DNA of 17,658 nt from a virus (taxonomy: Duplodnaviria > Heunggongvirae > Uroviricota > Caudoviricetes): positions 1 to 17,658 of IMG/VR virus record IMGVR_UViG_2671180727_000013; one strand, written 5' to 3'. Positions 1 to 15,552 of this stretch are shown here, piece by piece (position 1 is the first letter of the stretch; each line of letters begins with the position of its first letter). The notes below the pieces were generated by a model. That model was not told where the DNA came from. It did not search any database and worked only from the letters and a program-made list of their open reading frames with translations. Position numbers and translations under genes: made by a program.

Positions 1-46
1 CTGCCCGTTGACGGACTTCAGGGGAAAAACGAGTATTTTTAGTCAT
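1..46 (-). CDS. IS3-family transposase OrfA, N-terminal 15 codons only (runs off window)
   Basis: ATG at 46..44 preceded by AAGAGG Shine-Dalgarno; translation MTKNTRFSPEVRQRA; frame open to window edge. Confidence 0.55.
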   Translation of the reverse strand, partial: MTKNTRFSPEVRQRA

Positions 47-100
47 CCTGTTTACCTCTTTCTCAGGAAGTTTAGTCTCCAGGATTCCCGGGGCGGTTCA
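1..100 (-). mobile_element. IS3-family insertion sequence, terminal ~100 bp (element continues beyond window start)
   Basis: Minus strand from position 100 reads TGAACCGCCCCGGGAATCCTGGAGACTAAACTTCCTGAGAAAGAGGTAAACAGG then ATG at 46..44. It starts with TG as IS3-family ends do. The ORF it opens (MTKNTRFSPEVRQRA...) matches my recollection of IS629/IS1203-like OrfA N-termini. Not verified by search. Confidence 0.6.
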
Positions 101-563
101 GTATGACCGTTTCTGCTTTGAACTCCGGTACACCAACGAACTCTTTAACCTTCATCTGGTAGCCGGTTCTGTCAGTTTTGATGACTTCCTGTTTGCCCTC
201 TATAAACTGCTCGCGCCACTCATCTCGACGGGAAGCTGGCATGATCAGCAAAACGTTAGTCATGTCCGTGACCTTCCTCCAGTACTCGGCCCAAATATTC
301 TGTTTCACCCATTCCAGATCGACTTTATCCAACCAACCTCGATTTAAACGCGAGCGATCTTCATCTGGTCGATGGTTTAGTCTCAGCAGGCGATTAATCA
401 TGTTGTGGCGTTCGTCGCCATAAACGAAGTCGTGAACCTGATACATGAAGGCGATCTCTTTCTCGCACTCGGCCACAATTTCGTGGATGACGTTCATTTC
501 CTGCCGATAGTCGATAGCAGTGTTTGAGTTGGCATCGTCGATGATGGAAAGGGCTGTATTCAT
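72..563 (-). CDS. hypothetical protein; last ~9 codons (LNRPGNPGD) are read from the IS terminus, so the native 3' end is probably disrupted or replaced
   Basis: 163-aa ORF; ATG at 563 with GGTG 6 nt upstream; IS boundary at 100/101 lies inside the reading frame. Confidence 0.5.
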   Translation of the reverse strand: MNTALSIIDDANSNTAIDYRQEMNVIHEIVAECEKEIAFMYQVHDFVYGDERHNMINRLLRLNHRPDEDRSRLNRGWLDKVDLEWVKQNIWAEYWRKVTDMTNVLLIMPASRRDEWREQFIEGKQEVIKTDRTGYQMKVKEFVGVPEFKAETVILNRPGNPGD

Positions 564-603
564 AATTGCACCATTAAGAAGTGATTTGTTTAATGGTGCA
601 ATT
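564..603. repeat. perfect 14-bp inverted repeat (AATTGCACCATTAA / TTAATGGTGCAATT) with 12-bp spacer, abutting the start codon at 563
   Basis: Read directly: 564..577 is the reverse complement of 590..603. On the minus-strand mRNA the 3' arm covers the GGTG ribosome-binding site. Confidence 0.7.
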
Positions 604-666
604 ATTTCAAAAATGAAAAGGTACTAAATAGAAATAAACAGGCAATCCTTCAAATAAAGGCATTGG

Positions 667-1281
667 CTAATCATACTTGGAGGTATTTATCACCAGAATT
701 TTGTTTGTATAAATCTTCTTAATATCCCATGTGACATTACCGGAATACCATTGACCGTTATATACTTGGTTTCCAGTTGCACCTGTCATTGTTACATAGA
801 CAGGTCTGTCGTAATCGGTTCGTCTATAGTTATATACTCCAACCATAGCAGGCATTACCGCACATGGATACCCCATATCTATTGTAAATTGAGGGTCAGA
901 AATAGTGATAAGTTTCGCATCAAGGGGCATCATCTCACCGTGATACACCATTGCGCCTGCGCTGTTATACATGGCAATGCCATAGCCAGAATGTGGTAAC
1001 ACCATATCAGAAAAAGCATAAACTGTTATTGTTCCGGGGCTACCATTTACCTGATGCAATCTGAGAGCATTGTATCCGTTACTATGCTCATGAATAAACA
1101 TCATGTTCGCCTTATTACTGCTTTTTATGAAAAAAAAACATGATTTGTTTGATGGGATTGATGTTTGAAAAACAGAACCTTTAGATGTAGACATTGTCCC
1201 TTTATTAATCAGATTTTGCGGAGTAAATTCTGGACTCATCCACAAACTTCCATCTGATTGAGTAATTGACATCCCGAACAT
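667..1281 (-). CDS. hypothetical protein, Tyr/Asn/Gly/Thr-rich, encoded in visibly AT-rich DNA
   Basis: ORF 667..1338 trimmed to the ATG at 1281 (MFGMSIT...), which sits 2 nt after the TAA of the upstream gene with TGGGGA as SD. Contains a T9 run (plus 1130..1138) encoding FFF. Confidence 0.5.
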   Translation of the reverse strand: MFGMSITQSDGSLWMSPEFTPQNLINKGTMSTSKGSVFQTSIPSNKSCFFFIKSSNKANMMFIHEHSNGYNALRLHQVNGSPGTITVYAFSDMVLPHSGYGIAMYNSAGAMVYHGEMMPLDAKLITISDPQFTIDMGYPCAVMPAMVGVYNYRRTDYDRPVYVTMTGATGNQVYNGQWYSGNVTWDIKKIYTNKILVINTSKYD

Positions 1282-1283
1282 AA

Positions 1284-1565
1284 TTATCCCCAGTATGTGT
1301 ATATGTAAGAACCAAGCCCCGTATATAAATTTGACCAACTAACCGTATTTCCATTAATAGTAACTGTTGGAACAGGTAAATTAATGTAGTTGTCGTTGTT
1401 AAGAGGCATCAATGACCACACGGCATGTAGCGATTTACCCGGTGGCGGATTGGAGTACGTCTTAGAGCCTGATGACGCAGTAAATCGATCAAGAAAAAAA
1501 ATAGGAGTAAGGAAGCCAGTAACGTTAATTCCTTTATTGTTGTAAATCCCTGTACCGTATGCCAT
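1284..1565 (-). CDS. hypothetical small protein (93 aa), Tyr/Asn/Gly/Thr-rich
   Basis: ATG at 1565 with AAGGA SD 6 nt upstream; TAA at 1284; contains a T8 run (plus 1494..1501). Confidence 0.5.
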   Translation of the reverse strand: MAYGTGIYNNKGINVTGFLTPIFFLDRFTASSGSKTYSNPPPGKSLHAVWSLMPLNNDNYINLPVPTVTINGNTVSWSNLYTGLGSYIYTYWG

Positions 1566-1592
1566 TTTTCATCCTTGTTTTTTATCAACACA

Positions 1593-1616
1593 ATATGGCC
1601 GATCATGCGGCCATAT
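1593..1616 (-). other. intergenic stem-loop (9-bp stem ATATGGCCG/CGGCCATAT, 6-nt loop) between the 189-aa and 93-aa genes
   Basis: Inverted repeat read directly; no clear U-tract after it on the minus strand, so a processing or attenuation role is as likely as termination. Confidence 0.3.
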
Positions 1617-1620
1617 CAGA

Positions 1621-2190
1621 TCAATTAGAGCTTTGAAAGGCTTTGTGTGGCTGTGTTGCGAGGTTATGTCGATGGCTTAACTCACGCATCATGTCTTCAA
1701 GCCGACTCTTTGTGTCGTCGAGTTGGTCGGCCATTGCTCCCAAAAGCTGACGAACGGCCATCGGATCATCGCTGTTTAGTGATGGCATTTTATAACCCGC
1801 CTGAGAAGACATAAGATTGAACGCAGACATCAACATCGTTAGAGAGGATTTAAGCCCAGCAATTTCACGATCTTTGCTGGCAATAATCGCCTCACTCTTG
1901 TTAGTGTCATCAGTTCGTTGAGTCTCGCTCACCATATCCAAAGTCGCCTGCAACTTATCAGCGCGCTCTTTTTCAGCAAGATAATGAACACCGAAATGAT
2001 GTGCTAAAGCTACAACCTGAGTTGGCTCTTCAAAGGTGGACTCAAAATTAAGTGCTGTAACCACTCTCTCAAATATGGAAACGTCTTCTATTCCTCGAAG
2101 AATGGCTAACATTTTGACCAGTTCATTAGCATCCATTTCTTCGAATAAGGCGTTTTGTTCATCAGCTATCGCTTTGCATTTCTTGCACAT
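1621..2190 (-). CDS. hypothetical protein (189 aa), begins MCKKCK
   Basis: ATG at 2190 preceded by the conserved leader AGGAAAAACAC and the upstream cassette; no family recognised. Confidence 0.55.
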   Translation of the reverse strand: MCKKCKAIADEQNALFEEMDANELVKMLAILRGIEDVSIFERVVTALNFESTFEEPTQVVALAHHFGVHYLAEKERADKLQATLDMVSETQRTDDTNKSEAIIASKDREIAGLKSSLTMLMSAFNLMSSQAGYKMPSLNSDDPMAVRQLLGAMADQLDDTKSRLEDMMRELSHRHNLATQPHKAFQSSN

Positions 2191-2204
2191 GTGTTTTTCC
2201 TAAT

Positions 2205-2227
2205 GCTTAAACAAGTTGTTTTCTTAT
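2205..2227 (-). promoter_or_regulatory. conserved upstream cassette, copy 1 (minus strand ATAAGAAAACAACTTGTTTAAGC), 14 nt upstream of the 2190 start
   Basis: One of three near-identical 23-nt elements with palindromic core AAACAAcTTGTTT, each followed by the leader AGGAAA(A/G)(A)CAC ATG. Confidence 0.5.
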
Positions 2228-2294
2228 TGGCTTTATTGTGATGTGGCATAAAAGGGGAGCAAGCTAAACGTAAAGGTGCAAACTCTCTATTTCG

Positions 2295-2327
2295 GTCAAC
2301 GAAACACAAGGGCCATTTGGCCCTTGT
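2295..2327 (-). terminator. putative intrinsic terminator after the 52-aa gene
   Basis: 9-bp stem ACAAGGGCC/GGCCCTTGT with 4-nt loop (2306..2327), followed on the minus strand by GTTTCGTTG. Confidence 0.45.
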
Positions 2328-2329
2328 CA

Positions 2330-2488
2330 TTAACACGTTGCTTTACGGACTAGCGGATAAGCGAAGTAGATCGCCAGACCAATGAGGACGCCATCAGAAA
2401 TGACAGACATCATCTTTCCCGTAAAATCCACCAACACCGCCATCACCAGAAGAGCAATGACGATCACAAGCCGGAATCTCTCAAGCAT
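2330..2488 (-). CDS. small hydrophobic protein (52 aa; MLERFRLVIVIALLVMAVLVDFTGKMMSVISDGVLIGLAIYFAYPLVRKATC), predicted membrane protein
   Basis: Not in the ORF track (below 60 aa). ATG overlaps the TerB-like stop as TAATG; two hydrophobic segments; terminator hairpin directly downstream. Confidence 0.45.
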   Translation of the reverse strand: MLERFRLVIVIALLVMAVLVDFTGKMMSVISDGVLIGLAIYFAYPLVRKATC

Positions 2489-2913
2489 TAGAGATAAGCA
2501 TCCAGTGACAACTGAAGCGCCTGGGCGATCTTTTTAAGTGCCTGCTCTTCTTGTTCACCAATGCCGTCCTGATCGGCAATATCAAGGCACAGACACAGTA
2601 CATCTACTGCATCATTAGTCCCGGCCACATCAGCCAGCTCACGTAAAGCCTGGGCATTAGCGCGGCGCGGTGAGGCTTCGTATTGAGCACGAATATTGGC
2701 GCTCATTTGGGCAATCTCACCAGCAAACGGAGAAAACGCAGGCAGAGCTGCAATTGTTTTCTCAAGAATGGAAATTTCCTTTGCGTCGCATGTGCCATCG
2801 GCATAGGAGATCATGTACGCGCCCCACACGGTGGCTTCAACCGCATCTCGGTTCTCCATTTTTTTGACCTCGATAACAGCTTTACGAGTTTTCTTTTTGA
2901 ATAAACCTAACAT
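2488..2913 (-). CDS. TerB-like protein (tellurite-resistance TerB fold)
   Basis: 141 aa; ADG...E and LCLCLDIADQDGIGEQEEQALKKIAQAL segments resemble the two TerB repeats; ATG preceded by the conserved leader AAAGGAAAGCAC. Confidence 0.5.
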   Translation of the reverse strand: MLGLFKKKTRKAVIEVKKMENRDAVEATVWGAYMISYADGTCDAKEISILEKTIAALPAFSPFAGEIAQMSANIRAQYEASPRRANAQALRELADVAGTNDAVDVLCLCLDIADQDGIGEQEEQALKKIAQALQLSLDAYL

Positions 2914-2933
2914 GTGCTTTCCTTTTGTTATTT

Positions 2934-2956
2934 GTTAAAACAAGTTGTTTTCTAGT
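2934..2956 (-). promoter_or_regulatory. conserved upstream cassette, copy 2 (minus strand ACTAGAAAACAACTTGTTTTAAC), 20 nt upstream of the 2913 start
   Basis: Same 23-nt element as at 2205..2227 and 13155..13177; perfect 7-nt palindrome arms AAAACAA/TTGTTTT. Confidence 0.5.
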
Positions 2957-2965
2957 TACATGAAT

Positions 2966-3008
2966 TGCTTACGAAAAGACGGTCAATGCATATGCACTAA
3001 CAACCGTC
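2966..3008 (-). terminator. putative terminator-like hairpin after the 62-aa membrane protein gene
   Basis: GACGGT / ACCGTC stem enclosing the palindrome TGCATATGCA, followed on the minus strand by TTTTCG; short stem and long loop, so weak. Confidence 0.35.
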
Positions 3009-3195
3009 AGAAATAACCAAGTACCGAACCAACTGGAAAAACAAAAATCCCAACAACACGAGCCAAGGTCATACCAGCCTGAAACTGGAGATCGCCAGAG
3101 CAAACAAGTTTTATAATGTTCGATACCCAACCGGCGGCCATGAGGGCAAGAATTGCCAGCCAAATTTTTCCAAAGTGATTTGAAAACCAGTTCAT
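3007..3195 (-). CDS. small membrane protein (62 aa, two hydrophobic segments)
   Basis: ATG overlaps the upstream TGA as ATGA (translational coupling); AAGGCGG SD; hydrophobic sequence WLAILALMAAGW ... VVGIFVFPVGSVLGYF. Confidence 0.5.
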   Translation of the reverse strand: MNWFSNHFGKIWLAILALMAAGWVSNIIKLVCSGDLQFQAGMTLARVVGIFVFPVGSVLGYF

Positions 3196-3410
3196 ACAAC
3201 CGCCTTAGTCACAGCATGATCCTGAGTAACTGGATGAACTTGAGGTATCGCATCCACCGTCATCCCATCCAGAGTGACAGGACGCTCTACTGGAGTGGTG
3301 GTAATTGTCGTCGACGGAGGTGTGGTGATGGATGAACCCGGCATCAAAAGGCTCTGGCCGGCTGGAACGGCTATCGTCGCCAGTGAAACTATAATGAGAA
3401 CGTAGGCCAT
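3192..3410 (-). CDS. small secreted Thr/Pro-rich protein with N-terminal signal peptide (72 aa from the ATG at 3410)
   Basis: MAYVLIIVSLATIAVPAGQS looks like a type I signal peptide with an AxA-like site; AGAGG SD upstream; no lipobox Cys. Confidence 0.45.
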   Translation of the reverse strand: MAYVLIIVSLATIAVPAGQSLLMPGSSITTPPSTTITTTPVERPVTLDGMTVDAIPQVHPVTQDHAVTKAVV

Positions 3411-3699
3411 TGGTTTCAGCCTCTTTCTTTGAAAATTTTCCATTCGAACTGTCCTTGTTGTTTTTCTCCTTCACTAAAGGCCGTGTACTTTTCGCTTCGC
3501 GTGAAGAACCAGAGGTAACAATCGCCCCCACGTTCGCAACAACTGACGCTTGCTTATCTAAACGTTCATTCAGCAACCGAACGGCAGTCTCTAGTTCATC
3601 AAGACGTGACAGAACACGACCGCTAAATAATTCGGCCAAAATTTGACGTAGTGAACGAGGACGTTTAGTTGCAGAAGTGAAATAGGTTTGACGTGCCAT
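3205..3699 (-). CDS. hypothetical protein; N-terminal ~90 aa credible, C-terminal low-complexity part overlaps 3192..3410 in another frame and may be spurious
   Basis: ATG at 3699 with GGAG SD 5 nt upstream; 3' end uncertain. Confidence 0.4.
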   Translation of the reverse strand: MARQTYFTSATKRPRSLRQILAELFSGRVLSRLDELETAVRLLNERLDKQASVVANVGAIVTSGSSREAKSTRPLVKEKNNKDSSNGKFSKKEAETNGLRSHYSFTGDDSRSSRPEPFDAGFIHHHTSVDDNYHHSSRASCHSGWDDGGCDTSSSSSYSGSCCD

Positions 3700-3714
3700 G
3701 TGGACTCCATCCAG

Positions 3715-3750
3715 TGTCAGAAAGAGTTGCGGCTGGCGATTGCCAGCCGC
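3715..3750 (-). terminator. putative terminator-like hairpin downstream of the RNase H gene
   Basis: 9-bp GC-rich stem GCGGCTGGC/GCCAGCCGC with 4-nt loop (3729..3750), followed on the minus strand by AACTCTTTCTG. Confidence 0.4.
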
Positions 3751-3844
3751 CTTTCTCGTTCCATCCTGGAACTGTGTCTTACCGACACATTGTCATCCTG
3801 ACGCCGATAAGATACATGATTTAAAATGATAGGTAAACACTTAC

Positions 3845-4438
3845 TTACTGTTTGTTGTAAACAAAACCAATATCTTTCTTGTGAGGCATATCTGCTGCGG
3901 AAAAAGCTGCGATCTTCGCGAGTCGATCACATATTTCATTTTCACGATGCCCGGCGTGACCTTTAACCCACTTCCAGCGAACATTATGTCGACTTGCAGC
4001 CTCATCCAGACGCTTCCACAGATCAACATTCTTTACCGGTTTTTTGTCAGAAGTCACCCATCCATTGCGTTTCCACCATTTCATCCACTGTGTCATGCCG
4101 TTTTTCAGATACTGGCTATCAGAGTGCAAAATAACGTTGCATGGATATTTCAAACGCTCCAGCCCGATAAGTGCCCCCATCATCTCCATGCGGTTATTGG
4201 TGGTGCTATGAAAACCATCTGAGAACTCGCGTTCCTCACCACGATACTGGAGAACTATACCGTAACCGCCCGGGCCACCCGGATTTTTAAGGCAAGAGCC
4301 ATCACTGAAGATTTTCACGGTTTTAAGCTGGGGATTGAACTCTACGACAGGCGTTGTGGAATTGGTGCGGGGAGAATTTTTGTTTTTGGCTTTTTTGCGA
4401 GTTTTTTCTTGCGATCGGGCTGGTGTCTTCGTCGTCAT
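3845..4438 (-). CDS. rnhA: ribonuclease HI-like protein with a ~40-aa basic N-terminal extension
   Basis: [57 protein letters not shown] match E. coli RNase HI motifs. Start set at the ATG at 4438 (MTTKTP) because AGGAG lies 5 nt upstream; the track's longer ORF start has no SD. Confidence 0.85.
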
Positions 4439-4439
4439 A

Positions 4440-5021
4440 TAAACTCCTGAATCAAGCGCCGCGCCGATTTTTTCCTCGCGCGTGCGCACACGCGTGCGTG
4501 TTAATAATTATTAAAATAAACAAATTACTTCCCAGAACAGGTTTTTATAAACCTGAACTGAACGAACGAAGTGAGTGAAGTTCACCTCGAACGAAGTGAG
4601 AGGTTGTCTTTTCAGGTAATACTCTCCCAGGGAGGTGAGTATAAAAATCCCTCACCAACCTGGTCGTTTCATAACCTGAAAAGTTATGGCCTAAGTCTAC
4701 TGCCAGCTTAGACTTGGGAAGTTATGGATGACAGCACCCCAGAACCGAGATCTTCCCACACTTTATGAAGGGGAGTACTGGATTCAACCTCTCTAAACAC
4801 CCCAGACTCGACAATCATAAAGTGACCCTTGTCTCCGCTCACTTTGGTTCCCCCTTCCCCGACACCTAAACGGCACCGGTTCTACGCTGGTAGTGAGCTT
4901 TTTTAAACCTGACGCCAGTGACGCTTACCCCCACCCATCAGGTCGAGTCTCCAGTCTACGACTGGAAACTATCAGATCTTAGCACTTACAATTCACTTTA
5001 TGAATAGTTTGTACTTATCTA
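4440..5021 (-). other. ORF-poor, repeat-rich structured intergenic region (candidate ncRNA, regulatory hub or origin)
   Basis: No ORF of 60 aa or more on either strand; 12-nt direct repeat GAACGAAGTGAG at 4564..4575 and 4589..4600; several hairpins and long-range inverted repeats (details in findings). Confidence 0.4.
4477..4500. repeat. 24-nt perfectly alternating pyrimidine-purine GC-rich tract (Z-DNA-prone), with embedded palindromes
   Basis: CGCGCGTGCGCACACGCGTGCGTG read directly; includes CGCGTG-CGCA-CACGCG hairpin; followed by 14-bp AT palindrome TTAATAATTATTAA at 4501..4514. Confidence 0.6.
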
Positions 5022-5252
5022 TCATTGTGATTGATTATTTTCTCTACCATGTAGTTGAACATTCAAGGCAAACACCTCATTGATCAACTCACCTAAAAGC
5101 TGTTCAACAAGTTCGCGATGCTCGCCAAGATGCAAGCACTTAATTGCCCATTCGTACAAGTTGAAAGCCTGCTCACGATCTTTCATCATTTCACGAGCCT
5201 GGGCCAGAAAATCGCTCTCTACGAGCGCAACGACATTAGTCGGGTATGACAT
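5022..5252 (-). CDS. hypothetical small protein (76 aa from the ATG at 5252)
   Basis: Track ORF 5022..5276 trimmed to the internal ATG that has AAGGA 7 nt upstream; the first ATG lacks an SD. Confidence 0.45.
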   Translation of the reverse strand: MSYPTNVVALVESDFLAQAREMMKDREQAFNLYEWAIKCLHLGEHRELVEQLLGELINEVFALNVQLHGRENNQSQ

Positions 5253-5340
5253 GTTGGTTTCCTTAAAGTGGTTCATAAAATCGATTTTAAAGCGTCTGGG
5301 AAGGGGTTCTAGTGGATTCTGTAGTGATGTTCAGGTCTGG

Positions 5341-5416
5341 AGTCTCTGATACAAAACAGCCTGCTTCCGTATATTAATAATTAATATGTAGTTATTTATA
5401 TATACAGAAGCAGGCT
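5341..5416 (-). terminator. terminator-like long hairpin after the methyltransferase gene
   Basis: Arms 5358..5374 and 5400..5416 pair over 17 positions with one mismatch; 25-nt AT-rich loop containing ATTAATAATTAAT; minus-strand tail GTTTTGTAT. Confidence 0.35.
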
Positions 5417-5437
5417 AATTACAGACGCCAGAACAAA

Positions 5438-6031
5438 CTAAGCAGCCTTCTTTGATGGTCTTTTTTTCCTGATCACATTCGCAGGATCATACCCTCCCAG
5501 ACTTTTCATGACGTCCAAAGGGATCTTGCTTATAGAGTGCCCAGCGTCCTGACAAAATCCTCGAAAAACAACGAGCATACTGCCACCTGGGTTGATGTTT
5601 ACTTCTACCTGACCCAGATTGACGTCAGGCTCGACAAACGCTACGCGGCCACCAGACAGAATAATCGTCTCATTCGCACACTCTGTTGCACGCTCATACC
5701 ACTTTGTATCTAGGGATTGAGGAATTAGCATCACTGTTGTAACTCCGCGAGCCTGCTCACGTATAGCCGCATCAATCCAGGGGGAGATTTTGGAGTAGGG
5801 TGGATTGAGGAAGGCAATTGTACCTGGCTGTCCCCATTCAGATTTCAAAGCATCACGCTCAACGCCTATGAAATTAGGCAGCTTTGCATTGTCCTTGTTG
5901 CAGGCAACGTCAACATCAAATGTCACTCCAAGATAACGTTGAATGGCAGAAAACAGCCAGTCAGGTGTTCTCCAGAGGTCACGAAGAGAGTTGTCGCGCT
6001 TTCGCTGTTTGATTTTTTCGGCTGCAATCAT
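5438..6031 (-). CDS. phage Dam-family DNA N6-adenine methyltransferase
   Basis: N-terminal WRTPDWLF...FDVDVAC and catalytic NPPYS (motif IV) in the order typical of the phage Dam family (PF05869-like); 197 aa; no adjacent restriction-endonuclease gene seen. Confidence 0.75.
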   Translation of the reverse strand: MIAAEKIKQRKRDNSLRDLWRTPDWLFSAIQRYLGVTFDVDVACNKDNAKLPNFIGVERDALKSEWGQPGTIAFLNPPYSKISPWIDAAIREQARGVTTVMLIPQSLDTKWYERATECANETIILSGGRVAFVEPDVNLGQVEVNINPGGSMLVVFRGFCQDAGHSISKIPLDVMKSLGGYDPANVIRKKRPSKKAA

Positions 6032-6090
6032 CTTCTTTCTCGATAGGTAAGTAAATACCTATTTTTGCATTTGATTTTATGTCTGGCAAT

Positions 6091-6139
6091 CAAATAAAAC
6101 GCGCCAGAAATGCAAACGAGAAGCTCTCTGGCGCGTTTT
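6091..6139 (-). terminator. intrinsic terminator after the acidic-protein gene
   Basis: Stem AAAACGCGCCAGA / TCTGGCGCGTTTT (6097..6139), flanked by A/T runs so it has a U-tail in both orientations; minus-strand tail GTTTTATTTG. Confidence 0.6.
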
Positions 6140-6143
6140 TGTG

Positions 6144-6174
6144 GTGCTGGGTATGTGATTGGCTTACCCAGCAC
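6144..6174. other. second tandem hairpin (10-bp perfect stem GTGCTGGGTA/TACCCAGCAC, 11-nt loop)
   Basis: Read directly; no U-tract, function unknown. Confidence 0.4.
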
Positions 6175-6214
6175 TATAAAGCTCTCTATGGGCTTTATTT
6201 TCAGTAGGGGAACG

Positions 6215-7024
6215 TCATCCAATAGTGTACTCCGCGACAAACTTCTTAACGATCGGTGATTCTTCGTTCAATGTTAGATTTCCACCGCCTCTAACGGCAA
6301 TTCCTGTCGCTGGAAATACAGCCATCATTTGCCCAGCCTGAGTTGACGCAGTGTTAAGCGGATACGGTTTTTCTGGATTGCTCATTAAAGCAATCTTAAT
6401 ACTATTACTTGTAGCCTTCTTTTCTGTGAGAAGGTGTCTCATGGAAATTACCGTGTAAACACTAATATCTGGACCTCCGCTAAACCAATTAAGAAGGTTT
6501 AATATCTTATCCTTTGCTTTGACAGGCGCGTTATCGTAAGCGTCTAAGAAAATATCTTTTTCTAAGCCCGCTTTATTGAAAAACGAATCATCTTTATCAC
6601 TTAAAGTAAAACGAGGACCTCTTGCAGTACGAGCTTTTTTATTTGTATTGCTATCATTTGACTGTTGAACTTTTAATTCATCATTAACCTCAACACACTC
6701 TTCAACCTCAATAAATCCCAATTGTTCTGGCTCGTTTTCGGCAGCTTCAACACTTTCAGCGTTAATTACGTTTATAGGCTCATGCGCTAACTCCAACTCA
6801 TTTAAAGCAGAGCTGAAATCACCTGCTTTTTCTTCATTGAACAGTTCTTCGGCAACATCATCAGAACTCATGGCTACGCCAGCATCTAGGCCGAGCAGCA
6901 GATCGTCAATATCATCAGTATTTTCAACCTGTGCAGCTTTTTTTACTGGTTCATCAAGTGATTGCAACATGGCTGTCAGCTCGTCCAGATCATCATTTGT
7001 CATTACATTTTCAACCGAACTCAT
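6215..7024 (-). CDS. hypothetical protein with strongly acidic N-terminal half (Asp/Glu-rich)
   Basis: 269 aa; AGGAG SD 8 nt upstream of the ATG; N-terminal ~120 aa dominated by D/E; no catalytic motif recognised. Confidence 0.55.
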   Translation of the reverse strand: MSSVENVMTNDDLDELTAMLQSLDEPVKKAAQVENTDDIDDLLLGLDAGVAMSSDDVAEELFNEEKAGDFSSALNELELAHEPINVINAESVEAAENEPEQLGFIEVEECVEVNDELKVQQSNDSNTNKKARTARGPRFTLSDKDDSFFNKAGLEKDIFLDAYDNAPVKAKDKILNLLNWFSGGPDISVYTVISMRHLLTEKKATSNSIKIALMSNPEKPYPLNTASTQAGQMMAVFPATGIAVRGGGNLTLNEESPIVKKFVAEYTIG

Positions 7025-7133
7025 GTAAGTCTCCTTCTGTTTGGTTACATTTGCGTTTCGATGGCTACATTTTGACTAAACCTATCAGGCGGAAAAGTAT
7101 TAAATACAGGCAGGAAATGATTGAAAGGCGACT

Positions 7134-7178
7134 GTTCTTTAAAAGAAAGCCTACTTTAAACTTTTTAAAGTAGGCTTT
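7134..7178 (-). terminator. intrinsic terminator immediately after the exonuclease gene
   Basis: ~15-bp stem (7146..7160 with 7164..7178) and 3-nt loop; T-runs on both sides (minus tail TCTTTTAAAG, plus tail TTTTGTTTT). Confidence 0.6.
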
Positions 7179-7182
7179 TGTT

Positions 7183-7740
7183 TTACACAATTTCAGAGGG
7201 TAATTTAAAAAATCCGTACTTATTACGTGCCTTAAAGAAGCATTGCATCATTAAGTTTGTGTCATATAAGGCACTATGTGCTTTGGCATGATCGTATATA
7301 AAGCCAAGAGAGAAGGCCAACTCTTCAAGGCGGGGACGTTTACCGTCTTCTGTGGCCCACAATCCCGATAACATAGTATCTATAACAGGAACTTCTGGCA
7401 GTCTTACTCCATACCCTGAAAACTCGTGTCGAATAAATGGTATATCAAATGCTTCGCCGTTATGAGCAACCCACACACTACATGCCCCCATATAAGCGCC
7501 AATTTCGCTGGCATGATTTGACAACAAAGGTTCAGCTGCGAGCTGTTCCAATGAAATGCCATGAACGGCTTGAGCTTTCGGATCTATGTTTCTGCGAGGG
7601 TTAAAACGCATCTCCAGACTATCAATATGTCTCTGTGTCTCCAGTTCATAGCGGGTAATTGCGATTTCAATAATTTTATGACCAGCAAGGAAATCCAGTC
7701 CCGTAGACTCGATATCGATGCCTGCAACAATCGTTGTCAT
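7183..7740 (-). CDS. DnaQ-like DEDDh 3'-5' exonuclease
   Basis: Exo I GIDIESTGL, Exo II HNGEAFDIPF, Exo III HSALYDT; AAGGAG SD; 185 aa. Confidence 0.8.
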   Translation of the reverse strand: MTTIVAGIDIESTGLDFLAGHKIIEIAITRYELETQRHIDSLEMRFNPRRNIDPKAQAVHGISLEQLAAEPLLSNHASEIGAYMGACSVWVAHNGEAFDIPFIRHEFSGYGVRLPEVPVIDTMLSGLWATEDGKRPRLEELAFSLGFIYDHAKAHSALYDTNLMMQCFFKARNKYGFFKLPSEIV

Positions 7741-7749
7741 CAGAACTCC

Positions 7750-8169
7750 TTACAACTTCTTAGCGCCCTTAAGTAGTGCGCTACGTACAAATTGAGCCGC
7801 TTTTTTCAAAGTTTCTTCACTGGTTTCACAGACAATCGGATCTTTCCACTTACCTGACACAGTGTTGAGAATATTGATTTGGTTGCTATCCAGACAAACA
7901 GAGATATAAAGCACCGTGCCACCAGCCAGCATCAAATGCATAGGAAACAGAGGCTTTTTACTGCCTTCACTGAACTGAGACATGGCGATGTTAATGGCTT
8001 CACCCACTTGTGTACCAACAAGCCCCTGCGCAGTTTCGAATATGGCACGAATAGCCAGACGAGCCTCTCGATCGCTCATAAGCGACCGGGAATGTTCGTC
8101 CGCTACACGAATCAAAGCCTCTGTTGTTTTCCGATCCAGTTCATCTTCAAGCAACATTTCACTAAACAT
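7750..8169 (-). CDS. hypothetical protein (139 aa)
   Basis: ATG with AAGGA SD 7 nt upstream; its stop overlaps the RBS of the exonuclease gene; no family recognised. Confidence 0.5.
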   Translation of the reverse strand: MFSEMLLEDELDRKTTEALIRVADEHSRSLMSDREARLAIRAIFETAQGLVGTQVGEAINIAMSQFSEGSKKPLFPMHLMLAGGTVLYISVCLDSNQINILNTVSGKWKDPIVCETSEETLKKAAQFVRSALLKGAKKL

Positions 8170-8230
8170 TTTTTATCCTTAACCCATTTTGAGAGTTTTA
8201 TTGTCGCAATGTCGAAGAGGCGAACAATTT

Positions 8231-8875
8231 CTAATGAACGGTCACTCGGCCACAGAACCGGTTTTCTATCTTTTCTACAGCGTTATCTAGCATTCTCATC
8301 ACTGATCTGGCTCTTGCTTCAACCGTGCGATATCGGTTGGAAACGACGAAGGTTTGCAGATCTCCCCTTTGCGGATGCAGGTGAATTTTTGTCAGTTCCC
8401 CGCACATCAACGCATCAATACGAGCGACATACAGACGGTCTAATGATGCTCGTTGTGACCGCAAGTAATCTCGCTCTGAGAGAGCGACCCCCGGGCGTAG
8501 GCCAGCAATGGCGTTAAAGTTTGAAATAGCAGTTTTGTGGCAAAACTTTTCGATATCGAGGGCTAACTCAATACACCGATCTTCATTTGTATGGCCGACC
8601 AAATCCAACGTGTAGGCCATAACATCAGCAGGTGTGCGATCGATAACAAAGCCTTCAACACCACGCGTAAGTAGCTCTATATGCTTTGCTATTTCCATTT
8701 GAATCTGAAGCCGCTCATATAGAGGCATAGAATCACCTACTCGAACACCGAGGCGGCTCATCAAACTTCCGACACCAGCATCCACGTAAGGGATTCCGTA
8801 ATGTTTGTCGATATATTTAGCCAGGGTTGTTTTCCCACTGCCCTGAGCACCAGTGATCCCAATCCGGTAATCCAT
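8231..8875 (-). CDS. P-loop nucleotide/nucleoside kinase-like protein
   Basis: Walker A GITGAQGSGKTT near the N-terminus (dephospho-CoA kinase / uridine kinase style); start overlaps the DHFR stop as TAATG; substrate not assignable. Confidence 0.5.
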   Translation of the reverse strand: MDYRIGITGAQGSGKTTLAKYIDKHYGIPYVDAGVGSLMSRLGVRVGDSMPLYERLQIQMEIAKHIELLTRGVEGFVIDRTPADVMAYTLDLVGHTNEDRCIELALDIEKFCHKTAISNFNAIAGLRPGVALSERDYLRSQRASLDRLYVARIDALMCGELTKIHLHPQRGDLQTFVVSNRYRTVEARARSVMRMLDNAVEKIENRFCGRVTVH

Positions 8876-9351
8876 TACGACCTTCTGTATACGATCTGCG
8901 AAAAGCCAGGCTCTTCCTCGCTGGCTCGTTGGGTATAAGCTGTTTCAACAGGCACAAAGCCTAAATTACGCATCATGCTTGCCGGGAAGAATGCATCGGC
9001 GTTTGGCACATCAACGCCGATGTGGGAGAGCCAAATCTCTTCAACATGCGGCATGAATAGCGAGTAAATTTGTTCCCCGCCAATCACCCACACAGGCTCT
9101 GGTAATCGCAACACATCATCCACACCAGCAGGGTAGAATCCATTTGGTACAAAGCCATGAGAGCGCGTCAAAACGAGGTTATGACGCTCTGGAAGAGGGC
9201 GTTTGAGACTTTCCATCGTTTTACGCCCCATAACGACAGTGGCGTTTTTGGTGAGTCTCTTAAATAGCTTCAGATCGGTAGAACAACGCCAGGGGAGTTC
9301 ATTCGCTATGCCGATCTCATAGTTACGGCCAACAGCAGCGATCATCTTCAT
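8875..9351 (-). CDS. folA: dihydrofolate reductase
   Basis: MKMIAAVGRNYEIGIANELPW...VVMGRKTMESL...RPLPERHNLVLTR...VWVIGGEQIY aligns with E. coli FolA motifs; 158 aa; ATGA overlap with upstream gene. Confidence 0.85.
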   Translation of the reverse strand: MKMIAAVGRNYEIGIANELPWRCSTDLKLFKRLTKNATVVMGRKTMESLKRPLPERHNLVLTRSHGFVPNGFYPAGVDDVLRLPEPVWVIGGEQIYSLFMPHVEEIWLSHIGVDVPNADAFFPASMMRNLGFVPVETAYTQRASEEEPGFSQIVYRRS

Positions 9352-9761
9352 TTGCTCACCTCATAGATGACCGGTCGATGGTGAGAGTCGGCTAAAGCGG
9401 CACGGAGTCGAGGATCGTGCACCAGCGCAGCGATAAGCAGATCGCCTTTATGCTCCGCTAATGTGCGCTTAATATGCTTCTCATAACTGGTGCCATTCGG
9501 TACGAGATGAAGCCAGTCATAATCAACGCCAAAATCTTTCAGCCATCGTTTAGTTGGCGCTTCAAGAGTTTCAGAGCGGCTACTGATAAGCACCACTTCA
9601 GCCCCTGAGCGAGCAAAACCACGCAACATACGGCTGGTGGGGAAAATGAGTTCATCACCGGCAATGAGCTGGCCTGCATCCGCGTCAGATACTGATTTAC
9701 GATGGCTGGCATTTGCCAGCACACCTTCAATTTCGCATAAGACATACATACCTCTTGCCAT
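9348..9761 (-). CDS. hypothetical protein, possibly HAD-like fold with Glu in place of the motif I Asp residues
   Basis: Start set at the ATG at 9761 (MARGMYVLCEIEGVL), 1 nt after the thymidylate synthase stop; hhhExEGvL then VVLISSRSE then K...GD pattern is reminiscent of HAD motifs I-IV. Weak. Confidence 0.3.
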   Translation of the reverse strand: MARGMYVLCEIEGVLANASHRKSVSDADAGQLIAGDELIFPTSRMLRGFARSGAEVVLISSRSETLEAPTKRWLKDFGVDYDWLHLVPNGTSYEKHIKRTLAEHKGDLLIAALVHDPRLRAALADSHHRPVIYEVSK

Positions 9762-9762
9762 A

Positions 9763-10866
9763 TCACACCGCCACTGGAACCTTGATCCACGATAGAGGGT
9801 CATAGCCAAGAATTAAAACCTCGTCCCATTTGAAATCATCCAACTCTGACCATTCATGAGGGAAAATAACGACCGGATCTGAATGCTCTGGAGCCTGTCG
9901 TTTCATTAGCTCACACACACCTTCCATGTGGTTGTTGTACAAATGCACGTCAAAGCCAAAATGCACAAATGCACCGGCCATGTGACCCGTAATCTTCGCG
10001 AGAAAATGAGTGAGAATGCCATAGCCAGCAATATTGAATGGCATACCAACAAAAGTGTCTACGCTACGCTGTACGAGGCAGGAGTTGAGGATGCGTTTGG
10101 GGATTCCAAGTTCATCCAGTTCAGCTTCAGTAACACTGCCGTCCATCTCCAGATCGTATAGCATCTTGGTGTAGATAGACTCGTAACCGAGGCGACTGTG
10201 TTGAAGACCAATGTCAGTTGCCATCGTTAAACGGGTTTCAAAATCCAGCTCACGACTCCACAAAGAGAAGACAAAGTGGCAAGGTGGCAGTTTCATATCC
10301 TCAAGCTCGCCTACGTTCCATGCGTTAAGCATGATGCGACGATCGGTAGGGTTCGTGCGCAGTGTATCGACAATACGCTGTAGCTGATCGATTTCACGGG
10401 ACAGCACTACGCGATCTTCACTGATACCCAGGTATCCCTCGACTTTGTACCCGCGTTCACGGAAAGTAGCGATCTTGCTCAGATATTCACTATGGCTCAC
10501 GATGCGGGTATCTTCCCATCGACGCCACTGCTTACCGTAAACCGGCCCCAAATCGCCATTCTCATCGGCCCATGCATCCCAAATCTTAACGCCGTTATCC
10601 TTGAGAAATTGGATGTTGCCCGTGCCTTTCAGATACCACTCAAGTTCGACAAGCAGTGGCTTAAGATTTACCGCCTTTCCAGAAATAAGCGGCACAGTCC
10701 CACCAGTAAGCATGTAGTAAGAGGGAACGTAGCAGGTGCTTAAAGTACCAGTGCCTGTGCGATCATCAGCCTGCACGCCGCTTTTAAGCACCGTCTCAAT
10801 AACTTTTGCATACGATGCGTTTGTTACCTGACCGTTCGTATGCTCACGATTCAAAAGGAGTGACAC
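9763..10866 (-). CDS. thyA: thymidylate synthase (ThyA-type) carrying two large insertions
   Basis: DRTGTGTLS, IWDAWADENGDLGPVYGKQWRRW, DRRIMLNAWN, LPPCH, QRSVDTFVGMPFNIAGY (Asn retained, so dUMP-specific), HLYNNHM. Start ambiguous: GTG at 10866 has GAGG 5 nt upstream; the track's GTG at 10893 has no SD. Confidence 0.85.
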   Translation of the reverse strand: MSLLLNREHTNGQVTNASYAKVIETVLKSGVQADDRTGTGTLSTCYVPSYYMLTGGTVPLISGKAVNLKPLLVELEWYLKGTGNIQFLKDNGVKIWDAWADENGDLGPVYGKQWRRWEDTRIVSHSEYLSKIATFRERGYKVEGYLGISEDRVVLSREIDQLQRIVDTLRTNPTDRRIMLNAWNVGELEDMKLPPCHFVFSLWSRELDFETRLTMATDIGLQHSRLGYESIYTKMLYDLEMDGSVTEAELDELGIPKRILNSCLVQRSVDTFVGMPFNIAGYGILTHFLAKITGHMAGAFVHFGFDVHLYNNHMEGVCELMKRQAPEHSDPVVIFPHEWSELDDFKWDEVLILGYDPLSWIKVPVAV

Positions 10867-10940
10867 AAAAACCTCACAAAGATAAGTAACCACTTATTCA
10901 TTGCGTGAGTTTACATTTATTGAGAGAACAAGACCAGACA

Positions 10941-10969
10941 GATAAAAAAATGGTGGCCATAGGCCACCA
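10941..10969 (-). terminator. intrinsic terminator after the 289-aa gene
   Basis: 8-bp stem TGGTGGCC/GGCCACCA with 3-nt loop, followed on the minus strand by TTTTTTTATC. Confidence 0.7.
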
Positions 10970-11037
10970 AAAACGAATAGTTGTTTCAGAAATTTAACGC
11001 GCCAACGCAATATACACAGATAGATAACTACCTACAA

Positions 11038-11907
11038 TTATTTTTTGATCATTCCGTACATTGCTGAGGCTTTAGCTTGCTCAACAAAGGAGGATAAATC
11101 GACATCACTATAGGTTGGAGACTTCAGAATCTTTCCATCGGAAATTCGAAAACCGATCATCTTATCGGTGCCATCAGCATGGCGGAATCCCAGGTCTGAA
11201 GAGTCGTATTTGCAGTTGGCCACAGCCTGGCGACGTTCCTCAACATCAGCAGGCCATAATTTTGTCATGTTAGACCGATGAATTTCGCCAACCAGCTCGA
11301 CTACATTGATACCGAGGAAATCAGCCAGTCGATAGGTCATCATGCACGCCACATAGATTTTGTTCATGACACGGCGCAGTTCCTGAATCAGCTCAGAATC
11401 CTTAACAGTCTTGTTCTCAAGTTTATCTGCCAGCTCTTCGAGCATACATGACGCCTCACGAGCTTCCTGAAATGGCATTGCCATATCATCGAAAACAGTG
11501 TTACCGGGCACAAAAATTGTCTGCATAAAGCGATCAATGCTCTGTTCCTGCGTGTAATAGGTCATGCCGGTAGAAATACCACCTTTGATGGCGACCATCG
11601 TACCAACACCAACGTATAAAAAGTCGGCCATTGCATCCAGCAGTTGCTCAATATCCCCATTCATTGCGGCTGGAATACCTTCCACTACAGCTTCTTCATG
11701 AATCAGGCTTGCACGGAGACGAAGCAGCTCTGGTGTCGGCATAACGCGTCTCGGATGCTGGAAGAGTTCATGAAACTGATCGACCATCTTGTAAATACTT
11801 TCAGTAGCTACACCATGACCTTCATGCAACTCATATGGTTCTGGCTTAAATCCAATGAGTCGATCGGTGGCAAGTTTCAGGTGGTCAGTCAGTTTGGTAA
11901 AGTTCAT
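11038..11907 (-). CDS. putative all-alpha NTP pyrophosphohydrolase (MazG / dimeric dUTPase-like), tentative
   Basis: 289 aa; two EE-x-x-E ... D-x-x-x-D/E acidic helix patterns (LIHEEAVVEG...DIEQLLDAMADFLYV; EAREASCMLEELADKLE). Assignment by motif impression only. Confidence 0.35.
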   Translation of the reverse strand: MNFTKLTDHLKLATDRLIGFKPEPYELHEGHGVATESIYKMVDQFHELFQHPRRVMPTPELLRLRASLIHEEAVVEGIPAAMNGDIEQLLDAMADFLYVGVGTMVAIKGGISTGMTYYTQEQSIDRFMQTIFVPGNTVFDDMAMPFQEAREASCMLEELADKLENKTVKDSELIQELRRVMNKIYVACMMTYRLADFLGINVVELVGEIHRSNMTKLWPADVEERRQAVANCKYDSSDLGFRHADGTDKMIGFRISDGKILKSPTYSDVDLSSFVEQAKASAMYGMIKK

Positions 11908-11942
11908 GCTAGTTTTGTTCCTTCTTAATTCTTGTGATCCAT

Positions 11943-11967
11943 TGTGGCCCAGCGTTGCCAGGCCACA
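11943..11967 (-). other. stem-loop in the nrdB to downstream-gene spacer (7-bp stem TGTGGCC/GGCCACA, 11-nt loop)
   Basis: Read directly; no U-tract, so probably not a terminator. Confidence 0.3.
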
Positions 11968-11984
11968 TAATGCTTTGTATCGGT

Positions 11985-13127
11985 TTACAGGTCAGCAAAC
12001 TGGCTTAGAGAAGCCTTATCCACGGTAGAATCGATCTGACCTACCAGATATGTGCTTTGCTCTGCCTCTTGTGGTGCAATTTGCAGTGTGTCGGTTAACA
12101 ACCACTTGTTCATCCAGACCAGCGGATCGGTGGTAACCTCTGGAAATAAAGCCTTCAGGCCAAGACGATTCATAGCCAGATTGGTGCGGTATTTTACATA
12201 GGTTTTGAGAATATCCGCGTTTAAACCAATCATCGAACCGTCTTTGAAGAGATAGTCTGCCCAGTTCATTTCTTGTTCGGCGACTGATTTCATGGTGTCG
12301 TAAATGACGTTTTCTTCATCAGCAGCAATCTCTTTCCACAATAAACCTTCGCGACCGGTACGCATGAAGCGGATCATGCGTTCAGTTCCTTCGCAATGCA
12401 GAGCTTCATCACGGGCAATAAAGCGCATAATTTTGGTGTTACCCTCAAGCAACTTCCGTTCGCCAAAGGCAAACGTACATGCAAAACTTACATAGAAACG
12501 GATCGCCTCAAGCGCATTAATGGACACCAACGTGCGGAAAAGCTGACGGTGCAAAGGGTATGGCTCCCAGCCATATTCATTTACGTACAGACGTTCAAAC
12601 TCCTTCTCACCTAACGACTGGCGCTCGCAGGTCATCCCATAAAGCCTGTCATATTCAGCAGAGATACTGATCGCTCGGTTGATGATTTCTTCATCCGTAA
12701 CAATACCGTCAAAAACAATGCTCGGATCGTCCACCATGCCACGAATAATGTGGGTGTAGCTGCGGCTATGGATAGTCTCAGAGAAAGACCACGTTTCAAC
12801 CCACGTTTCCAGTTCAGGAATAGAGATAAGCGGCAGCAGCGTTGCATTTGGACTACGTCCCTGAACTGAATCGAGTAACGTTTGATAACGGAGATTGCTC
12901 AGAAAAATGTGACGTTCGTGGTCCCGCAGCTTCGTGTTGAAGTCGATACGATCGCTCGAAATATCAACTTCTTCCGGCCGCCAGAAGAAAGACAATTGAC
13001 GTTCAATCAACTTTTCAAAATCACGGTATTTTTGCTGATCGTAACGTGCCACGTTGACAGATTGTCCGAGGAACATAGGCTCTTTGGTTGCATCATTAGC
13101 ACCCAAACGGAACGTTGAATATGACAT
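11985..13127 (-). CDS. nrdB: ribonucleotide reductase class Ia small (beta) subunit
   Basis: 380 aa; long stretches near-identical to E. coli NrdB as I recall it ([90 protein letters not shown]). Uninterrupted, no intron. Confidence 0.95.
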
Positions 13128-13154
13128 GTGTTTTTCCTTTTTCTTTTTTGGTGC

Positions 13155-13177
13155 GTTTAAACAAGTTGTTATCTTAT
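13155..13177 (-). promoter_or_regulatory. conserved upstream cassette, copy 3 (minus strand ATAAGATAACAACTTGTTTAAAC), 27 nt upstream of the nrdB start, plus a partial extra TTGTTTAAAC copy at 13180..13189
   Basis: Third copy of the 23-nt element; lies between the nrdA terminator and the nrdB RBS, followed by the leader AAGGAAAAACAC ATG. Confidence 0.5.
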
Positions 13178-13195
13178 GTGTTTAAACAAGGCTTA

Positions 13196-13228
13196 CAAAT
13201 CAAAGAGAAGGTGGGGATATCCCCCACC
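13196..13228 (-). terminator. intrinsic terminator immediately after nrdA
   Basis: GC-rich hairpin GGTGGGG-ATATC-CCCACC (13210..13228) followed on the minus strand by TTCTCTTTGATTTG. Confidence 0.6.
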
Positions 13229-13233
13229 ATATG

Positions 13234-15549
13234 TCAGATTTTGCAGGCTCCGTCGCACTCATCTTCTGGCTCGACGGCTACAGCTTGCGTCAGTGGATTC
13301 TGCGGTTCGTCGTCATCACGCTTTCCTGCCCCATCTCTGGTGTTGTGGTAGTAAAGCGTTTTAACTCCCATCTTGTAGGCGAGAAGCAAATCTGACAGTA
13401 GCGTCATCATTGGGACTTTATCGCCTTCAAAGCGAGAAGGGTCATAGTTGGTATTGGCTGAAATAGCCTGGTCAAAGAACTTCTGGATGATCGCCACCTT
13501 TGTCAGATAGCCGCGGTTGTCCGGCATATCCCACAGGTATTCATACTGTTCCTTCAGTTTTTCAAACTCAGGCACGACCATCTTAACGATGCCGTCCTTA
13601 GAAGATTTCACTGACACCGGGCCACGAGGCGGTTCGATGCCGTTGGTGGAATTAGTGATCTGGCTGGAAGTCTCGCATGGCATTTGTGCCGTCAGTGTGG
13701 AGTTGCGAAGGCCGTATTTTGCAATACGTTCACGCAGTTCTTCCCACGGCATCTTTAACTCAAAGTTGGTTTCGCCACTTTCGTCTAATGAAGAACGGTA
13801 ATGGTCGATCGGCAACTGACCAATTGCGTACTTGGTCTGCTCAAACCAGTCACACTCACCTTTTGCTTCAGCAAGTCGGCAGCTGGCATCAAGAAGGTAA
13901 TACTGGATAGCTTCGAACGTTTCATGCACCAGTTTATTGCCAGCGGTATCAGAATAACGAACGCCATTCTTTGCCAGGTAATAAGCAAAGTTGGTTACAC
14001 CAATTCCCAAGCTACGACGAGCTTTGGCAGGCACTTCGGCTGCCTCCATCGGATAGTCTTGATAATCCAGTAACGAATCCAGTGCAGCAACGGCATAGAA
14101 CGCCACCTCTTTAAGAGACTCCAGTGAACGGATGGCTCCGAGGTTAAAAGCGGATAAAGTGCATAGCGCGATCTCACCGTTCGGGTCGTCGGTAAATGCC
14201 AGTGGACGAGTGGGTAGAGTGATCTCCATGCACAGGTTTGACTGGCGAACAGGTGCAAGAGCAGGAATGAAAGCGCCATGCTCGTTAATATGATCGACGT
14301 TCGCAATATAAATTCGGCCCGTGGACGCTCGTTCCTGCATCAGAGATGAGAACAGCTCAATGGCAGGTACTGACTTCTTGCGAATTGAATCATCGGCTTC
14401 GTATTTATGGTACAGCTTTTCAAACAGCTCCTGGTCTGTGAAGAAGGCTTCGTACATATCAGGCACATCATGCGGGCTGAACAGAGTGATGTTCTCGCTT
14501 CTGACGAGTCGACGGTACATTAGACGGTTACTCATGACGCCGTAATCAAGATGGCGAACGCGGTTTTCATCAATACCACGGTTATTTTTCACCACCAGCA
14601 GACTTTCAACTTCAAGATGCCAGATCGGGTAAAACGCTGTTGCTGCGCCACCACGAACACCACCTTGCGAACAAGATTTAACAGCCGTCTGGAAATGCTT
14701 CAGGAATGGAATAACTCCGGTATGGGTGGCTTCACCATTGCGGATCTCGCTGCCCAGCGCACGGATACGGCCAAAACCAATACCAATTCCAGCACGACGT
14801 GAAACGTAGTCGATAATTGCGGCTGAAGCTGCACTAATCCCTTTCAGACTATCGCCAGACTCAATCAGCACACAACTGGAGAACTGACGGGTTGGAGTAC
14901 GGACGCCGGCCATGATTGGTGTGGGCAGAGACAGTTTGAACGTACTTGTAACGTCATAGAAACCTTTGACCATCTCCATACGTGTTTTGCCAGCGCAGTC
15001 GTCTTCCCAATTCTGGAACAGACACATGCCTACCAGCATATAGATATGTTGCGGCCCCTCATGAATCTCACCAGTAACACGGTTTTGAACGAGGTATTTG
15101 CTTTGCAATTGCACCGTAGCCGCATAGCCAAAAAGATCGTCACGTTTAGGCTTAATGTAATTGCCGAGTTCTTCGATCTCTTCAAATGAATAATGTGTCA
15201 GCAAATCCTTGTCATAAACGCCCTTGTTAACGTTCTTGACAATGTGTTGGTAGAAGTTCGGATAGTCGTAACGACCGAAGGCATCTTTGCGGATTTTAAA
15301 AATGTTCAGGCGGGCAGCCACCTGCGAGTAATTTGGTGCATCTGGTGAGATCAAATCAGCGGCAGATTTAACCAAAGCCTCATGCAACTGGCTGGTGGTA
15401 ATCCCATCAAAAATGCTGGCCGCAGCTCCCATTGCTACAGCGGATGCGCTTACGCCACGAATGCCTTCTACGCCATACATTACGACGCGGTTGTATTTTT
15501 CTTCGGATAACGGCTCTGTTTGGCCGTTACGTTTTACGATGCTTATCAT
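13234..15549 (-). CDS. nrdA: ribonucleotide reductase class Ia large (alpha) subunit
   Basis: 771 aa, collinear with E. coli NrdA from the ATP-cone region (VKRNGQTEP) to the C-terminal CxxxxGACKI tail; many near-identical blocks (QNRVTGEI, PTPIMAGVRTPTRQFSSCVLIE, SCSQGGVRGGAAT, NLCMEI, ALCTLSAFNLG). Confidence 0.95.
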   Translation of the reverse strand: MISIVKRNGQTEPLSEEKYNRVVMYGVEGIRGVSASAVAMGAAASIFDGITTSQLHEALVKSAADLISPDAPNYSQVAARLNIFKIRKDAFGRYDYPNFYQHIVKNVNKGVYDKDLLTHYSFEEIEELGNYIKPKRDDLFGYAATVQLQSKYLVQNRVTGEIHEGPQHIYMLVGMCLFQNWEDDCAGKTRMEMVKGFYDVTSTFKLSLPTPIMAGVRTPTRQFSSCVLIESGDSLKGISAASAAIIDYVSRRAGIGIGFGRIRALGSEIRNGEATHTGVIPFLKHFQTAVKSCSQGGVRGGAATAFYPIWHLEVESLLVVKNNRGIDENRVRHLDYGVMSNRLMYRRLVRSENITLFSPHDVPDMYEAFFTDQELFEKLYHKYEADDSIRKKSVPAIELFSSLMQERASTGRIYIANVDHINEHGAFIPALAPVRQSNLCMEITLPTRPLAFTDDPNGEIALCTLSAFNLGAIRSLESLKEVAFYAVAALDSLLDYQDYPMEAAEVPAKARRSLGIGVTNFAYYLAKNGVRYSDTAGNKLVHETFEAIQYYLLDASCRLAEAKGECDWFEQTKYAIGQLPIDHYRSSLDESGETNFELKMPWEELRERIAKYGLRNSTLTAQMPCETSSQITNSTNGIEPPRGPVSVKSSKDGIVKMVVPEFEKLKEQYEYLWDMPDNRGYLTKVAIIQKFFDQAISANTNYDPSRFEGDKVPMMTLLSDLLLAYKMGVKTLYYHNTRDGAGKRDDDEPQNPLTQAVAVEPEDECDGACKI

Positions 15550-15552
15550 GTA

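Follow-up and report, generated by a model that had tools for sequence, protein, structure and literature searches.

The window, by which we mean the whole stretch of 17,658 nucleotides analysed here, opens with one end of IS629, a multicopy mobile element of enterobacteria that belongs to the IS3 family. We consider it highly probable that this element entered by simple insertion into a phage-plasmid DUF4942 gene. IS629 would have transposed into codon 155 of the 561 codons of a DUF4942/SAM-methyltransferase gene, on an SSU5/pHCM2-like phage-plasmid carried by an Escherichia coli isolate.

The element at positions 1 to 100 is IS629

An earlier note, written from the letters of the DNA alone, had proposed that the window begins inside an IS3-family element whose terminus lies at position 100 and whose OrfA starts at 46. 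A BLAST-type check of positions 1..100 bore out the family assignment, with 100 of 100 bases matching annotated IS629. The first 100 nt of the left end lie on the minus strand (100..1, TGAACCGCCCCGGGAATCCTGGAGACTAAACTTCCTGAGAAAGAGGTAAACAGGATGACTAAAAATACTCGTTTTTCCCCTGAAGTCCGTCAACGGGCAG, opening TGAACCGCCCCGGGAATCCTGGAGACTAAACTTCCTGAGAAAGAGGTAAACAGGATGACTAAAAATACTCG) and match E. coli IS copies at 100%, and the remainder of the 1310-bp element lies past the contig end. Among 5426 complete E. coli genomes, 3553 carried 100% matches to this stretch, at 22,811 places on chromosomes and plasmids (E = 2e-44), and at thousands of places the matches bore the annotation "IS3 family transposase". A figure of 97.7% for the same 100 nt was discarded as the product of alignments extending beyond the IS end.

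The 100 nt were then compared with three full-length copies of 1310 bp. The copy in LC567828.1, which is annotated as [quoted passage not shown], agreed at 100/100 positions, and so did the copy in p4_2_1.1, which in turn matched the LC567828.1 copy at 1308 of 1310 positions. The copy on pRM9975-1, labelled "IS1203 family" by PGAP, agreed at 94 of 100 positions and at 1258 of 1310 overall. The names IS629, IS1203 and IS3411 stand for isoforms of a single element, and insertion of IS629 duplicates 3 to 4 bp of target (PMC3271280). The target-site duplications at the other compared copies were TAA, CGT and (C)AAG. A version of the IS629 end with a differing base (AACTCCCTG) was dropped, the annotated IS629 of LC567828.1 being exactly the version in the window.

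Direct reading of the sequence placed the left terminal inverted repeat (IRL, TGAACCGCCCCGGGAATCCTGGAGA) at 76..100 on the minus strand. It begins TGAACCGCCCCGGG, of the 5'-TG type, and matches the right repeat of full-length IS629 copies (TGAACCGCCCCGGGTTTCCTGGAGA) at 23 of 25 positions. A ribosome-binding site for orfA, AAGAGG, stands at about 59..54, and orfA itself starts with an ATG at 46..44, 55 nt from the IS629 end. Fifteen of its 108 codons are visible (1..46, minus strand), and their translation, MTKNTRFSPEVRQRA, is identical to the IS629 OrfA N-terminus in LC567828.1, which confirms the OrfA start given in the earlier note. Full-length copies that are identical over the shared 100 nt have an orfAB fusion made by -1 programmed frameshifting and a DDE catalytic domain, and one of them is annotated with "programmed frameshift".

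The proposed terminus at position 100 was likewise found to be exact. IS629 ends at 100|101, and homology to uninterrupted phage-plasmids starts at precisely 101. Across this junction, the sequence of an intact plasmid is ...catcgtag|gtatgaccgtttc, and that of the window is ...gcggttca|gtatgaccgtttc (opening gtatgacc). The target bases adjoining the terminus (101..104, minus strand) predict a duplication of TAC (3 bp) or ATAC (4 bp) on the gene strand. The 30-nt junction had no match in three large contig collections (genome, viral and metagenome), and no E. coli genome, plasmid or phage record in the annotated collections searched spans it.

IS629 cuts a putative DNA methyltransferase gene

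The gene next to the IS end was then examined. The 463 nt at 101..563 on the minus strand are the native 5' part of a 1686-nt gene for a DUF4942 protein and putative N6-adenine DNA methyltransferase, and are identical to nt 1..463 of the WP_001090447.1 gene in NZ_CP062854.1. The intact gene encodes 561 aa and is annotated as "DUF4942 domain-containing protein" (WP_001090447.1) and, in SSU5, as "DNA modification methylase". A protein search returned homologues of 555-573 aa, plus partial forms, in Escherichia, Salmonella, Klebsiella, Citrobacter, Cronobacter, Enterobacter, Xenorhabdus, Providencia and Moellerella. The spread of these lengths across many genera argues that the long form is ancestral.

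In the intact protein, Pfam DUF4942 covers residues 140-295, and residues ~394-523 match phage "DNA methyltransferase" PHROGs as well as PADLOC models for Type II, orphan and MADS methyltransferases. Its translation contains EPQAGRGD (SAM binding, motif I) and NPPY (catalytic, motif IV). An NCBIfam search gave sub-threshold methyltransferase matches only, and a PDB sequence search with the intact protein returned no related solved structure. The product is described here as a predicted class I SAM-dependent DNA methyltransferase.

In the window, the gene continues into the IS as a chimeric ORF of 163 aa (72..563, minus strand; CTT32472.1), composed of native residues 1-154 followed by LNRPGNPGD and a stop that come from the IS. 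Codon 155 (101..99) is a hybrid in which CTG (Leu) replaces CCT (Pro), codons 156-163 and the TAA (74..72) lie inside the IS629 left repeat, and the reading frame closes 25 nt ahead of orfA. The derivation of the last nine codons and the stop from the IS, already noticed in the earlier note, is therefore exact. The element has the same orientation as the gene that it interrupts, and read-through from the DUF4942 gene promoter may feed transcription of orfA; a scan of 1..1400 found no sigma-70-like promoter.

The earlier note had left two possibilities side by side, that the IS truncated this gene or that it landed just downstream of it. With intact homologues of 555-573 aa, truncation holds and the downstream position falls away. 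The description of the IS end as joined to the 3' end of this gene also understated the damage, since the insertion lies in codon 155 of 561 and severs 407 residues (73%) of the protein. The comparison with intact homologues that the note had suggested confirmed that C-terminal residues are missing, and no homologue among those seen has the C-terminus ...ETVILNRPGNPGD that precedes the stop of the 163-aa ORF. This ORF contains no DUF4942, no EPQAGRGD, no NPPY and no Pfam domain. Judged by these comparisons, it is an IS-generated gene fragment, not a whole gene to which the IS supplied the end, and we infer that the full-length methyltransferase is inactivated. CTT32472.1, although deposited as "DNA modification methylase", should therefore not count as a member of the protein family.

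At the other end of the ORF, a perfect 16-bp hairpin or palindrome (AATAATTGCACCATTAA...TTAATGGTGCAATTAT; 562..605, minus strand) overlaps the start codon of the DUF4942 gene. Folded as RNA, it has a dG of -20.6 kcal/mol (z = -5.8), and homology to SSU5 stops inside it. Possible roles for it are that of an operator or that of a hairpin controlling translation by sequestering the start codon.

The surrounding DNA is of the SSU5 phage-plasmid type and ends in a second IS

From 101 to 17537, the window aligned collinearly and in a single piece with E. coli plasmids of 106-113 kb, at 99.4-99.5% identity. Compared with phages, positions 101..700 matched Cyrano (98%), PhiR41_1 (94%) and Salmonella phage SSU5 (about 90%), with CMS-2020a and Klebsiella relatives also among the matches. 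SSU5/pHCM2 is a recognised group of phage-plasmids (PMC7969092, PMC8085198). The genes encode NrdA, NrdB, thymidylate synthase, dihydrofolate reductase (DHFR), an AAA_28 kinase-like ATPase, an RNase T-like exonuclease, Dam, RNase H, a TerB-like protein and a DUF3927 protein. By homology and gene content, 101..17537 is SSU5-like phage-plasmid DNA, of which the window covers the DNA-metabolism region only. The 163-aa protein is encoded on CYAB01000042.1 (GCA_001283145.1), and the window is the entirety of that contig from the draft assembly of an E. coli isolate. The suggestion that the locus resides in a bacterial genome or plasmid, as a prophage or phage-plasmid, was thus well founded: it is an SSU5-like phage-plasmid in the assembly of an E. 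coli isolate.

Two genes of this region deserve mention in their own right. The nucleotide-metabolism block contains a DHFR of 158 aa (PF00186) at 8875..9351 on the minus strand. An SSU5-borne DHFR gene, dfrA51, raises the trimethoprim MIC when expressed in E. coli (PMC12217456), and the DHFR of the window may be related to it. An intact phage Dam-type N6-adenine methyltransferase (PF05869) is encoded at 5438..6031, also on the minus strand. With Dam intact and the DUF4942 methylase interrupted, an element that would normally have two putative DNA methyltransferases still has one.

The opposite end of the contig was also found to be an IS terminus. Phage-plasmid homology stops at 17537, and the remaining 121 nt (17538..17658) are the istB-proximal terminus of IS100 (IS21 family), identical at 121/121 positions to IS100 in Yersinia pestis and Shigella plasmids; the match ends at IS100 position 1954. 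A 151-nt match that seemed to carry IS100 homology 30 nt into the plasmid was dropped as a weak, gapped chance extension. IS100 cuts a gene for an SbcC/Rad50-like ATPase, of which a 3' remnant encoding the C-terminal 200 of 638 aa is left at 16935..17537 (minus strand), with NCBIfam matches to the SbcC/Rad50 C-terminus. The intact 638-aa gene is present in the extracted region of pRM9975-1 (21158..23074 of the extract). The contig is bounded by IS termini on both sides, and the phage-plasmid has at least two IS insertions. That the locus is subject to decay, as had been argued from the first IS, is supported by this second one. The window opens inside IS629 because the short-read assembly broke at a multicopy repeat.

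The predicted remainder of the gene is on record

IS3-family elements produce an OrfAB transposase through a -1 frameshift and move by a copy-out/paste-in mechanism through a circular intermediate. IS629 would have arrived here by this usual route of OrfAB frameshifting and a circular intermediate, and a 3-4 bp duplication (TAC or ATAC) is expected at its right end. On the gene strand, the predicted right junction is ...TCTCCAGGAAACCCGGGGCGGTTCA + TAC (or ATAC) + CTACGATGCTTAATTTGCTG..., and the rest of the DUF4942 gene would follow the right end of IS629, on another contig.

We rebuilt this right flank by joining IS629 to the intact gene, once for a duplication of 3 bp and once for one of 4 bp. 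In both versions, the native frame is closed by a stop in the IS tail and the next in-frame start is Met157, which gives a predicted ORF of 405 aa. An exact-sequence look-up found this 405-aa sequence recorded once, as CTT20798.1 ("DNA modification methylase [Escherichia coli]"), on a contig of 38,652 bp; it was not among the matches listed in the large protein search. The 163-aa half was likewise recorded once, as CTT32472.1. The ENA protein ids climb by ~28 per gene along the contig of the window, from 32472 for the first gene to 33042 for nrdA and 33070 and 33098 for the next two, which suggests that roughly 28 assemblies were numbered in an interleaved fashion. Dividing the id gap between CTT20798.1 and CTT32472.1 by ~28 would put the two halves about 410 genes apart, a distance compatible with a single assembly. 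Had two isolates shared the insertion, two accessions would be expected for each half, and each half has one. The id numbering and the single occurrence of each half are good indirect evidence that the remainder encoded by CTT20798.1 sits beyond IS629 in the same genome.

Other readings of the junction

We considered whether the junction might reflect something other than a simple insertion. An IS-mediated rearrangement (an adjacent deletion, an inversion or a cointegrate of two IS629 copies) would make the 17.4-kb block between IS629 and IS100 a decayed fragment of a phage-plasmid, possibly in another replicon. Both contig ends are indeed IS termini, of different families, and the many copies of IS629 and IS100 that E. 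coli and Shigella carry offer ample substrate for recombination. However, the DNA between the IS ends is collinear with intact plasmids as one aligned piece at about 99.5%, and the same accession batch has a single record of the complementary 405-aa ORF from Met157, which is the expectation for a simple insertion and not for an adjacent deletion. We therefore hold a rearrangement to be quite improbable. A chimera of the assembly, in which a repeat was wrongly joined to unrelated plasmid DNA, is very unlikely, to the point of being almost negligible. Multicopy repeats such as those at the contig ends are typical sites of short-read assembler errors, but the break coincides with the outermost nucleotide of the IS, which a random join would reach with a chance of about 1 in 1310. 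Moreover, IS and plasmid have no sequence in common there on which a k-mer graph could have gone astray, and the complementary half-gene was called separately.

Another reading concerns the allele that was present before the insertion. A stand-alone N-terminal module of 158 aa, ending in ...IPTMA or ...IPTMV, is common in E. coli SSU5-like plasmids (phrog_16000, e.g. WP_063091494.1). In NZ_CP062914.1, which carries this short form, the match to the long form extends up to gene nt 471 (Met157) and no further, and the block beyond this breakpoint encodes hsdR and hsdM of a type I R-M system together with pol III theta, an S24 peptidase, apbC and metG. Past the IS629 site, the long form reads ...CTACGATGCTTAATTTG and the short form ...CTACGATGGCTTGATCT. 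If the window had descended from such an allele, IS629 would have removed its last four codons only. The frequency of stand-alone forms speaks for this, as do the 8 nt between the IS629 site (gene nt 463) and the short-form breakpoint (nt 471) and one 158-aa form that differs from window residues 1-154 at a single position. Against it, the DNA of 101..700 is 100% identical to that of more than 20 plasmids with the 561-aa form, the best whole-contig matches that are also among the matches to 101..700 carry the long form, the sole short-form plasmid compared reaches 94% identity over the stretch in common, and the matching 405-aa remainder is on record. An insertion into a short-form allele is thus decidedly improbable. 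The proximity of the two sites could also have a meaning of its own: Met157 is both the point at which short-form homology breaks and the first start codon after IS629, and a random site in the 1686-nt gene would fall that close to the breakpoint about 1% of the time, in what is a post hoc comparison. The stretch from nt 463 to 471 could then be a module boundary or a hot spot of recombination or insertion, and the IS would have made a two-gene arrangement (N-terminal module plus 405-aa DUF4942-methyltransferase) instead of merely destroying the gene. We regard this as unlikely, and the 8-nt proximity may be coincidence. The preferred reading remains a simple insertion of IS629 into the long form of the gene.

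Comparison with known elements

The element is known and so is the kind of event, and we found no other record of the insertion site itself. Over the visible 100 bases, IS629 is without any difference from the annotated element, whereas its insertion at codon 155 of the DUF4942 gene was found in no other searched record. Most IS629 copies in E. coli O157:H7 genomes sit in prophages (PMC3271280). With the natural 158-aa form, the truncated product of the window has residues 1-154 in common, but in that form the 3' part is replaced by a type I R-M block and not by an IS, while the product of the window ends in ...ILNRPGNPGD. With the SSU5/pHCM2-like elements SSU5, Cyrano, PhiR41_1 and CMS-2020a, the window shares the gene order of nrdAB, thymidylate synthase, DHFR, Dam, RNase H, TerB-like and DUF4942 methylase genes. 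These references are uninterrupted at both sites, whereas in the window the DUF4942 gene is interrupted by IS629 and the SbcC-like gene by IS100. The element's performance as a phage might change if it has lost a putative self-protecting methyltransferase and an SbcC-like nuclease subunit.

SSU5-group phage-plasmids that differ only by the gain or loss of an IS have been described (bioRxiv 10.1101/2025.09.12.675607), and the IS629 insertion is a further case of such gain or loss. A close parallel is pRM9975-1 (NZ_CP028433.1), in which a complete IS1203-type element of 1310 bp (10615..11924 of the extract) lies in a 3'-5' exonuclease gene and is flanked by a CGT duplication. This IS629 isoform (96% identical) sits in the same DNA-metabolism region, 7 kb away, with a duplication of 3 bp; as its target gene and isoform are other than those of the window, it represents an independent event.
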